Shown here: piece after piece, positions 58,001 to 61,000 of the stretch
Position numbering within the stretch: the stretch's first letter is position 1
Layout: each line of letters begins with the position of its first letter
Assembly: GCF_964204645.1 (NCBI RefSeq)
Contig: NC_134028.1
Span: forward strand, 5,146,001-5,210,000
Reading direction: 5' to 3'
Length of the DNA: 64,000 nucleotides
DNA from: Tubulanus polymorphus
Lineage: Eukaryota; Animalia; Nemertea
Position numbers and translations under genes: made by a program
Notes under the pieces: generated by a model
Seen by the model: only the letters and a program-made list of their open reading frames with translations
Database searches by the model: none
What the model was told of the DNA's origin: nothing

Positions 58001-61000
58001 ACTTGTGCCTTACAAAAAATGTGTTACTGGAAAACTCTAGTCTAGAAAAAAAAATCAGGGAGAACTTGAGGAATTTAGATAATGCTATTGACCCCGTGTT
58101 TCTTTATCAGTACATGATTTCATGAAAAATGAATGAATTGTAACATTCTAAACCAAGACATTTCTCTAATTCGCTCGGGGAATTATATATAATCACATGG
58201 AAAAATCAGGGAAAATTCACATTTTCAAATGGGCGGAAAGTGTCCACCTGGCCTGTTACTTTTGCCTCAGCCTTACTACTATGAACCCTGTGTCACTGGA
58301 GTAATAGATTTACGCAGGACTGAGACTGAGCATTTTCTGGTTTTACTTTTTAGGCGTCGTTTCAACAGTCGTACCGGATTCACAGTTTAAGATATTTATT
58401 GGTGGATTGCCGAACTACTTAAACGAGGATCAGGTAAGTGATTCCGCGATAAGTGTTTATGGGGTGTATGGCTCAGCAGGCTGACAGATTCAGCGGTGAC
58501 TACTGTAAAGTTTGCGCTTCATCCATAAAATTAAGTCTGAATACAAGACTTGCGGGTAATCGGACTTTGACCGCGTAAACTTCATCAGTCAGTCGATTTA
58601 GGGAACCGCTCGTATTTTTCTGCGATATGTGTGTGCACTTGTTAACAGGTTAGGTTTGTTTGTAACTATCCCTCTTTCTCTCTCGACGGTAAGTATGATC
58701 AAGGTAGGTGAGAATTGCAGGTCACGAAGCAAGGGGAATAATGTGTGTGTCAACCAGAGGCCGACCTCTCCCACAAAGTCTACCGACAGGCTTTCTAGTT
58801 TCAGGGTTTATTTCAGCCTCTTCGTTCGAAGGTTTTGCCCCATATTTCTATCTTTTCGAAAACTAGCGACTAAACATCGAACGCGATGTGTATTTTCCAG
58901 CTGCATTTTTTCAGGAAATCTCTTGCAGGCGTTTCTTTTCAGACCCAAAAACGAATTCATTTAATTTGGAATATTTCGTTTCTCTTTCATTCGATCTATT
59001 ATTTACGTAAAATATGTTTTCAGGAGGAAATACTAATTTTGATAATATGATTATTATATTTCGATTTCTCTTATTGTTCGTCGGATTTCGAAGCATTGCG
59101 AGACACACGCTTCCGTTGCAGGTTCTATTTTCAGGCGTTTGATAGTAAAGAACTTGAAAATAATCTGCTCAGCGCCGAAAAAAAAGATATCGATGCTCTA
59201 GATATAACAAATATCGTTTAATCTTCATTCGAATATGAAAAGAATAATTCAAAATAGAAACTTCCGAATAGTGATATGAAATTATAATGTAGAAACTTTA
59301 CCCATTATAAATTAACGCTGAATTTTAGTACTTTATCGAAGGCCTTTGGGTAAACACAACACATTATTATACATAATGCTTTATTACTGTACAGGCTGTT
59401 ATTACAAATACTGATCATATTTATTTTTTCTTCCCCAATCTTTGTACGTAGCTTAGGGGAAGAGGGTGATAAAATAAAGCCAACCCTCATGTTGTTAAAC
59501 ACACAATACTGTCTCGTGACATCCGTGGCTTGAAAGGCAAGTGGTTTGAGTGTGTCTATGTTCAATCTCTCAAAATAAAAATTGTCTTTTTGTGAAAAAA
59601 AACGCGTTCTGTGAAACAGTAAGTAGAAAAAATGCGCTAAACGAATTCTAAAATCAGAGCTCCGGGACTTTCTCTGAATTTCTCATCTTACTGGGTTTCT
59701 CAGAAAATGTGTTACACTTACGCGGTATCTTGTTTCACAATAATAACTTGTCATAGTGCAAATATTTCTACACATCTATTCGAGCGTATATAGGGTACCG
59801 TTTCATAAGTACCAGTTATCAAATTTGGTGGATTTTAAGTTGACCGGCAGCATTCTTTACATATATAAGAACATAAAGAATGATTATTGCGGTAGTGACT
59901 GTAGCATATTTTCGTGAGATGCCTTATAGAAATTATTTTCTGTAGCTCTGATGTAGATATAGAGAGAAGGGGGCCCCTAGTGTGACAATAAATAAGTCCC
60001 ATGTTCTACTCATATATTGAGTTTAGACACTATTTAGTTGGTGGTGTAATATTGAGTTGCATGTTATTGATGAATCACGGATCTTTACATTATTTGTTGG
60101 CTCGCCGCAGTAAGTTTCGTTCCGATGATCAAATTACGGATTGCTTCGTGATTCTGAATTCGTACGGATATTCGATTCGTAAACAATAAAAGATACTTCA
60201 TAGATCCAGCAAATATGTTGTAAAGGTCCCGGTTGTAAGCTTCGGTAAATAACACGTATTTCTTTTCTTTCAATTGTAGGTGAAGGAATTGCTGATGTCG
60301 TTCGGGCCATTGAAAGCATTTAATCTCGTGAAGGACAGCGCTACTGGTTTGAGTAAGGGATACGCGTTCTGTGAATATCTGGATGTTAGCATTACCGATG
60401 TGGTAAGTATCATCAGAAAGTACCTAATTTACTGGTACTACTAGAAAATTATTTAAACATTTGATTCGTCCTTATTTGGTACTGGTCTGCTTGCAAAACC
60501 ACTGAAGTCGGATGAATAATTTTAAAATCATTTAATTCCTAATTTCAGGCGTGTCAGGGGTTGAACAATATGCAACTGGGAGATAAGAAATTGATTGTCC
60601 AACGAGCTAGTGTCGGCGCGAAGAATGCACAGGTAAGATACATCAACTTAACAGAAATCTTTTCGCTTGCTTCGGGATGGTTTTTTCAACGGCATGAATT
60701 TGTATTTATAGCAAGCAGCAGTTCAGCTACAGGTGCCGGGGTTGAATCTAAGTTCGGCGAGTCAGACATTGACCGAGGTTTTGTGTTTGATGAACATGGT
60801 CGTACCAGAAGAGCTGGAAGATGAAGAAGAGTACGAAGGTAAACGATACGTACCGAAACAAAAAAGGCGCGCTTTTCATGAAAAAACAAAATACGATCAG
60901 CGATTCATGCATAAATGTGTTTCGATATTTCAGATATTTTAGAAGATGTTCGCGAAGAATGCAGTAAATATGGACTAGTGAAGAGTATTGAAATTCCGCG

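Follow-up and report, generated by a model that had tools for sequence, protein, structure and literature searches.

The window, by which we mean the whole 64-kb stretch of Tubulanus polymorphus DNA that was analysed and to which all coordinates refer, carries on its forward strand the gene for the U2AF large subunit, resolved by the gene model into 14 exons at 55068-61448 (+) that encode 494 amino acids. All 13 of its introns are represented by GT..AG joints in contigs of two sequencing runs, X2 and X4, and the best named match of exon 10 is a 494-aa protein of Tubulanus polymorphus, a nemertean, which agrees with the gene model over the stretch compared. The part of the gene that concerns us is laid out as follows:

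58354..58433, + strand: U2AF2 exon 9, with the start of RRM2 (gene model and joints)
58434..60279, + strand: U2AF2 intron 9, a selectively retained phase 0 intron of 1846 nt
60280..60402, + strand: U2AF2 exon 10 (VKELLMSF...) (gene model and joints)

The original prediction, made from the letters of this DNA, held that intron 9 is about three times longer than the other U2AF2 introns, that it interrupts RRM2 and that it contains no recognisable transposable element, and all of this stands: the intron measures 1846 nt versus 617 and 523 nt for the next longest, it splits RRM2 in phase 0 (NEDQ/VKEL), DNA-run depth across it is flat at 32.7, and it has neither inverted repeats nor an Rfam match (a search of 52000-64000 returned zero matches). 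When intron 9 is kept in the RNA, the first in-frame stop is met at codon 17. Two neighbouring introns have peculiarities of their own, namely a short dispersed repeat in intron 8 (about 58070-58290), with a DNA depth of 4137 versus 32 and hundreds of similar contigs, and three diverged direct repeats with a period of about 170 nt in intron 7 (57118-57529), where the DNA run also has numerous allelic differences. A lower variant density in intron 9 than in intron 7 (7.6 versus 22.7 per kb) was dropped as an argument; introns 1-5 are without variants among those listed.

Part of the T. polymorphus U2AF2 RNA keeps intron 9, and does so selectively. The runs concerned (X2, X4 and X6) are not recorded as RNA and were treated as such on the strength of their spliced joints. 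In X2, which is spliced at all 13 junctions, a single unbranched contig of 1902 nt spans 58406-60306 at a contig depth of 316, beside a depth of 838 for the exon 9-10 joint; this contig abuts both exons with overlaps of less than 31 letters and is therefore not a formal bridge. Bins within introns 2 and 7 of the same run are at zero, and the only cover besides intron 9 lies in intron 13, as a 197-nt piece at 61103-61300 with a depth of 7.2, a pattern that argues against genomic DNA. X4, from a separate study, covers intron 9 in parts at 3-6 versus 79 for the joint, and X6, a run of low depth (17), has no cover in intron 9. Contig depths, which measure neither level nor strand, suggest a retained share of about one quarter in X2 and about one twentieth in X4. 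Retention of a large intron with spliced neighbours, as is typical of decoy-exon introns, is thus seen in contigs of two studies. Runs X3 and X5 do not qualify as evidence on RNA: they have no spliced joints, and their contigs end at GATC with a shared foreign tail (for example at 58700), so that a contig stopping near the stacked donors described below represents a proximity-ligation-type junction and not splicing.

Within the retained intron lies a short exon with the following signals:

59409..59415, + strand: predicted branch point TACTGAT, ACTSAY-like in relatives (alignments)
59418..59436, + strand: conserved pyrimidine tract, U-rich and then C-rich, separated from the AG by 13 nt; base pairing of its C-run with 59456-59462 is possible
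59450..59451, + strand: AG acceptor of the poison exon, unchanged throughout the 13 aligned copies, used in transcript L001 and placed in the loop of a predicted hairpin
59452..59536, + strand: poison or decoy cassette exon of 85 nt, reading L-R-G-R-G-stop (TGA at 59467-59469, then a TAA)
59537..59542, + strand: non-canonical GC donor AAG/GCAAGT, with no second AGGCAAGT on the + strand of the window
59619..59624, + strand: possible alternative GT donor ACA/GTAAGT, which would make a 167-nt cassette; not conserved

The premature stop at 59467-59469 lies 67 nt before the 3' junction of the cassette, with more junctions downstream, and the exon thus combines usable splice sites with a premature stop upstream of later junctions, as a poison exon does; it is at the same time a conserved cryptic exon with weak sites in a large intron, as decoy exons are. 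The copies in relatives likewise meet a stop early. Its donor is of a rare kind: GC-AG introns account for less than 1% in five model genomes, where a near-perfect match to U1 compensates (PMC1557818). Most copies of the exon, including the rotifer-like ones, have a second AG 5 nt past the cassette acceptor (window 59452-59456), which may be a tandem acceptor. The original prediction had called for RNA to be mapped for both intron retention and cryptic junctions. Retention was seen, in that intron 9 is not always cleanly spliced in X2 and X4 contigs, and the run contigs contain no cassette joints: none leads to or from 59452 or 59536 in any run examined, and the full skip from exon 9 to exon 10 is the only joint within 58330-60440. 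Contigs lose rare forms, and the absent joint leaves inclusion of the cassette in T. polymorphus unproven.

Relatives were collected by an exon 10 scan of metagenome contigs, which gave 172 confirmed stretches, the best 80 of which were analysed; prokaryote genomes and viral contigs yielded no useful U2AF2 locus. Among these best 80 of 172, the orthologous intron is the longest one seen in 13 of the 14 distinct loci that have both of its ends (for instance, 2499 nt versus at most about 440, 5281 versus less than 100, and 2626 versus 417 for the others in the same locus); L047 is the exception, and L051 has one other intron visible. The only stretch of intron 9 common to the introns of other species is 59404-59484, which comprises the branch point, the tract, the AG and the G-rich exon start. 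This element occurs in L051, L039, L052, L021 and L017 (marine invertebrates, whose lineage a comparison with 26 named proteins did not narrow down), in L034/L055, where exon 10 of L034 is identical to that of the stony corals Orbicella and Montipora, in L007-9 (ant-like), L031, L066/L076 and L058 (arthropod-like), and in L080, whose exon 10 is identical to that of a teleost U2AF2-like paralog. A profile built from 12 of these other copies, with the window left out, has one match in the window, at 59424-59469 (E 2e-5; the next at 0.17), a match not fully independent because the seed copies were chosen with a window-derived pattern. The GC donor, on the other hand, is independent evidence: AG/GCAAGT follows the acceptor at a distance of 39-131 nt in 11 of 11 unspliced copies, and these had been chosen by the acceptor alone. 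In 369 kb (81 loci and the window), the AGGCAAGT octamer occurs 17 times, every time in the orthologous intron.

What is conserved amounts to the splice signals and some 18 exon bases, and exon length ranges from 39 to 131 nt. Seven of the 14 complete introns have both acceptor and GC donor, one has the GC donor only, three have a rotifer-like cassette and three have nothing recognisable; in the L047 group the donor octamer is kept and the acceptor has diverged. The element is missing from L045 (fish, 412 nt), from L065/L069 (280 nt) and from L068 (fish-like) within 5.2 kb, and seven more partial loci are too short to be scored for it. One fish paralog type has the poison exon, which is absent from one locus of the other type. 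At the position of intron 9, the frame of eight amniote-type proteins, which are selected for being open, continues straight across a short intron of about 78-111 nt (four measured). As to the alignment of orthologous introns that the original prediction had likewise called for, it reveals that intron 9 contains the conserved exon 59452-59536 from corals to fish. On the comparison of sequences, the exon's splice signals recur from corals through arthropods to bony fish and likely mark a very old self-limiting switch on U2AF2.

Some loci depart from this arrangement. Rotifer-like loci have their own conserved cassette in the orthologous intron (L029 863-972, L046 1537-1644, L073 7577-7720 and L040 from about 253 onward), in which pairing with the exon encloses tract and AG in a 13-bp helix, the donor is GT, and decoy acceptors lie downstream. 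L020 has no intron 9, and its longest intron is intron 8 (1394 nt, 1613-3006), in which no poison-exon element was found; transcript L013 (709-1335) retains intron 8 only, and intron 8 of these two is possibly a shifted control point. The long intron of L068 contains, at about 4400-4730, what by eye appears to be a decayed antisense fragment of coding sequence.

The exon is spliced in three other species, on both sides in L001 and on its 3' side in L021 and L058. In transcript L001, exons 9 and 10 are separated by a 68-nt cassette, which starts like that of the window and reads P-R-G-R-G-stop. In L021, the conserved acceptor region is followed by a 93-nt cassette joined to exon 10; L037, which has the same exon 10 sequence, has the true acceptor, and it follows that in L021 the downstream half of the intron has been removed while the upstream half is unspliced. 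L058 is in the same state, with its cassette joined to exon 10 and the upstream half unspliced. Seven teleost proteins, which are predictions and not transcripts, read NDDQ/LGA, with the same acceptor and reading as the cassette of L080.

The acceptor may also be shaped by RNA structure. In the fold prediction, a possible pairing of the C-run at 59430-59436 with 59456-59462 places the AG in the loop; folding of 59420-59470 gives a z of -2.4, and that of a 91-nt stretch a z of -1.2. Eight copies share a helix of 7 pairs that are 87.5% paired, of which 3 pairs have two-sided changes (reached in 104 of 500 shuffles), with weak covariation (5 of 500). No consensus fold over all 13 copies was found, and the rotifer-like helix over the AG is a different one, in which covariation is absent. 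Compared with 31 ordinary acceptors, pairing across the splice site is greater (15 versus 9, p=0.009, with related sequences counted separately), and openness of the tract is equal (0.50 versus 0.50). A hairpin may gate the poison-exon acceptor; a gate common to all copies is not supported.

The upstream half of intron 9 is in addition rich in decoy acceptors, of which the original prediction had correctly counted about ten (six TTTCAG and four TTGCAG/TTCCAG):

58715..59134, + strand: decoy 3' splice-site array, with TTTCAG at 58799, 58811, 58909, 58937, 59018 and 59129 and four TTGCAG/TTCCAG

Every decoy in the array lies upstream of the poison exon. TTTCAG occurs 6 times in the interior of intron 9 versus 0.8 expected (p=0.002, 500 dinucleotide shuffles), and versus 0.5 expected for the part upstream of the poison exon; there is none in the other 12 U2AF2 introns and none on the antisense strand, and under a looser rule for pyrimidine-rich acceptors the excess in intron 9 disappears (9 versus 8.3). 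Summed over the upstream halves of nine loci (the window included, and L055 omitted as close to L034), there are 43 TTTCAG versus about 11 expected, and over the downstream halves of seven loci 3 versus about 3. The excess is absent from L017 and L031. In C. elegans, the site of the U2AF heterodimer is UUUUCAGR (PMC2762039).

Several other elements named by the original prediction fared less well. The multibranch structure that it placed near the 5' end of the intron does fold better than shuffles, as a long irregular hairpin and not as a multibranch, and the frameshifting cassette with stacked donors can be drawn:

58497..58595, + strand: long irregular hairpin near the 5' end of intron 9, z -3.5, lineage-specific, sequence not conserved
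58649..58703, + strand: originally proposed candidate cassette with donors at 58689, 58704 and 58708, unsupported

The hairpin (0 of 200 shuffles) is the best of 140 windows, of which two in introns 6 and 7 also reach a z of about -3; no relative has the same sequence there, and relatives give scattered hairpins at varying offsets. The cassette (58649-58688/58703) is preceded by a poor tract, its sequence is not conserved, and the runs contain no joint for it. Strong GT donors in intron 9 as a whole exceed expectation (4 versus 0.9, p=0.01). The 3' hairpin proposed over a decoy donor at 60110 folds at chance level (z -0.2 to -0.3). On the whole, the parts of the intron had been misweighted for the most part, with the cassette, the poly(A) signals and the 3' hairpin unsupported and the conserved exon 59452-59536 missed. 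The central proposal, an unproductive-splicing module akin to that of C. elegans uaf-1, is by contrast strongly supported by selective retention, by the longest intron in 13 of 14 loci and by the conserved poison exon.

The reading that we favor, with somewhat better than even confidence, is that intron 9 is a selectively retained intron built on a conserved stop cassette whose acceptor is weak and whose donor is GC, and that the intron likely provides negative feedback on U2AF. When U2AF65/35 is plentiful, it would load onto the TTTCAG decoys and onto the weak, partly hairpin-masked acceptor, and U1 at the GC donor would allow the exon to be defined. This could have two outcomes: either the message would be held with intron 9, or its upstream half, unspliced, or the exon would be included, such that the premature stop leads to nonsense-mediated decay. 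At low U2AF, splicing would be confined to the strong sites of exons 9 and 10, and full-length protein would be made. The state of L021 and L058, in which only the downstream half has been spliced out, is consistent with a stall in the upstream half with its many decoys. It is the excess of U2AF-type motifs, and that excess only, that suggests U2AF itself as the factor sensed.

That a long intron is simply slow to splice and its look-alike sites are neutral is the least probable of the readings weighed here. Long introns do linger in RNA and intron 9 is the longest of U2AF2, but branch point, tract, AG and GC donor are kept between corals, arthropods, fish and nemerteans, and since neutral sequence would not keep those signals, this explanation is largely refuted. 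Very improbable, too, is that the main outcome would be intronic polyadenylation at AATAAA with production of a truncated message. AATAAA sites, which the original prediction had invoked, are indeed present at 59473, 59574, 59987 and 60185, and the three downstream of the cassette exceed what is expected there (3 versus 0.8, p=0.04); over the whole intron, however, they remain at chance level (4 versus 1.7, p=0.10), the downstream halves of seven relatives have no excess either, and the X2 contig reaches exon 10 without a break and has no free ends within the intron.

Alternatively, the exon could be kept for the sake of a truncated U2AF65 (RS, the U2AF35-binding segment and RRM1) ending in -RGRG, which would be either functional or tagged by an Arg-Gly degron. 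We consider this improbable, even though 9 of 14 copies have R-x-R-G followed by a stop at codon 6, between them using all three stops (TGA, TAA and TAG) and the arginine codons AGA, CGA, CGT and CGC, against an RG-stop background of 0.4%, and even though Arg-Gly and R-x-x-G ends are degrons of KLHDC3 and APPBP2 in human cells (PMC11568203, PMC10614623). The ending is missing from 5 of 14 copies; corals (LRGA*, LRGD*) and the ant-like and fish copies are without it. The count is inflated by common ancestry, selection on the RNA may explain why the G-run is kept, and the message is a predicted target of nonsense-mediated decay. The RAFG-stop of rotifer-like loci was rejected as degron evidence: a 2-nt insertion breaks it in one of four loci, and RNA pairing explains the ending. 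Unlikely but by no means negligible is that the same poison or decoy exon would respond to a different input, be it SF1, PUF60, RBM39, G-run binders, spliceosome load, stress, nutrition or tissue. The purine/G-rich run at the conserved exon start could bind other proteins, apparent retention varies by run (316/838, about 5/79 and none at 17), and some exon-keeping species have no decoy excess; against these points, the enriched TTTCAG is the U2AF heterodimer's own site (PMC2762039), it is enriched on the sense strand only, and it lies in U2AF's own gene.

How does the favored feedback on U2AF relate to known systems? Poison exons coupled to nonsense-mediated decay are found in SR and hnRNP genes, and the U2AF2 exon resembles them as a conserved premature-stop cassette in a splicing-factor gene, but it differs in that it has no ultraconserved block, varies between 39 and 131 nt in length and resides in the gene for a core constitutive factor. 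In C. elegans, uaf-1 reportedly has a stop-containing alternative exon with many copies of the 3' splice-site consensus (Zorio, Lea and Blumenthal 1997; MacMorris et al. 1999); the exon is said to be inserted near the start of RRM2, the consensus copies to be located within the included exon and next to it, and the RNA to be held in the nucleus. The likeness extends to the same gene, a stop-containing alternative exon and multiple consensus copies, whereas in T. polymorphus the short exon with its GC donor follows downstream of the decoys, and what the contigs show is the intron retained in full. Exon 4 of C. elegans uaf-1a ends within RRM2, such that an intron lies in RRM2 there as well (PMC2762039). 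The T. polymorphus exon is probably homologous to that of uaf-1; no nematode locus was identified among the relatives. Decoy exons in large retained introns are also described for human SF3B1 (intron 4), OGT (intron 4) and ARGLU1 (PMC6097662, PMC12017769); they bind U2AF and cause retention (PMC6097662), and the action proposed above for the U2AF2 exon follows theirs. These share with U2AF2 a retained intron of more than 1 kb in an RNA-processing gene, and in it a cryptic exon that is conserved, spliced weakly and in most cases carries a stop. They differ in concerning other genes, in that the exon's causal role in retention is demonstrated there and inferred for U2AF2, and in a conservation span of vertebrates as opposed to cnidarians to bilaterians; moreover, the U2AF2 exon has a conserved GC donor, unlike the human decoy exons, and amniote-type U2AF2 is without the large intron.

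For animals other than nematodes, the literature checked, which includes PMC13247117, PMC4937301, PMC12709185, PMC4484395, PMC9304896 and PMC3400559, contains no account of a conserved poison exon in U2AF2; supplements and splicing databases, in which it may be listed, and most subscription journals were outside its scope. The U2AF2 exon represents a new form of poison/decoy-exon control, and one of deep conservation. One could go further and, as a rather doubtful extension, envisage a U2AF homeostat that predates the split of cnidarians and bilaterians, composed of decoys, a hairpin-masked acceptor and an invariant GC donor, to which, in many protostomes, an Arg-Gly degron on any truncated U2AF65 escaping decay would have been added, as a double lock on RNA and protein, and which would have been lost in amniotes as the intron shrank to about 80-110 nt.

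To our knowledge, unproductive splicing events are usually young and few have been followed across animal phyla. If true, a poison exon in U2AF2 that extends from corals to fish with a fixed GC donor would provide a general context for the long-isolated uaf-1 observation. The apparent loss of the exon in amniote-type genes, together with the difference between fish paralogs, raises the question of what replaced it, and the exon offers a direct test of how cells set the dose of U2AF.
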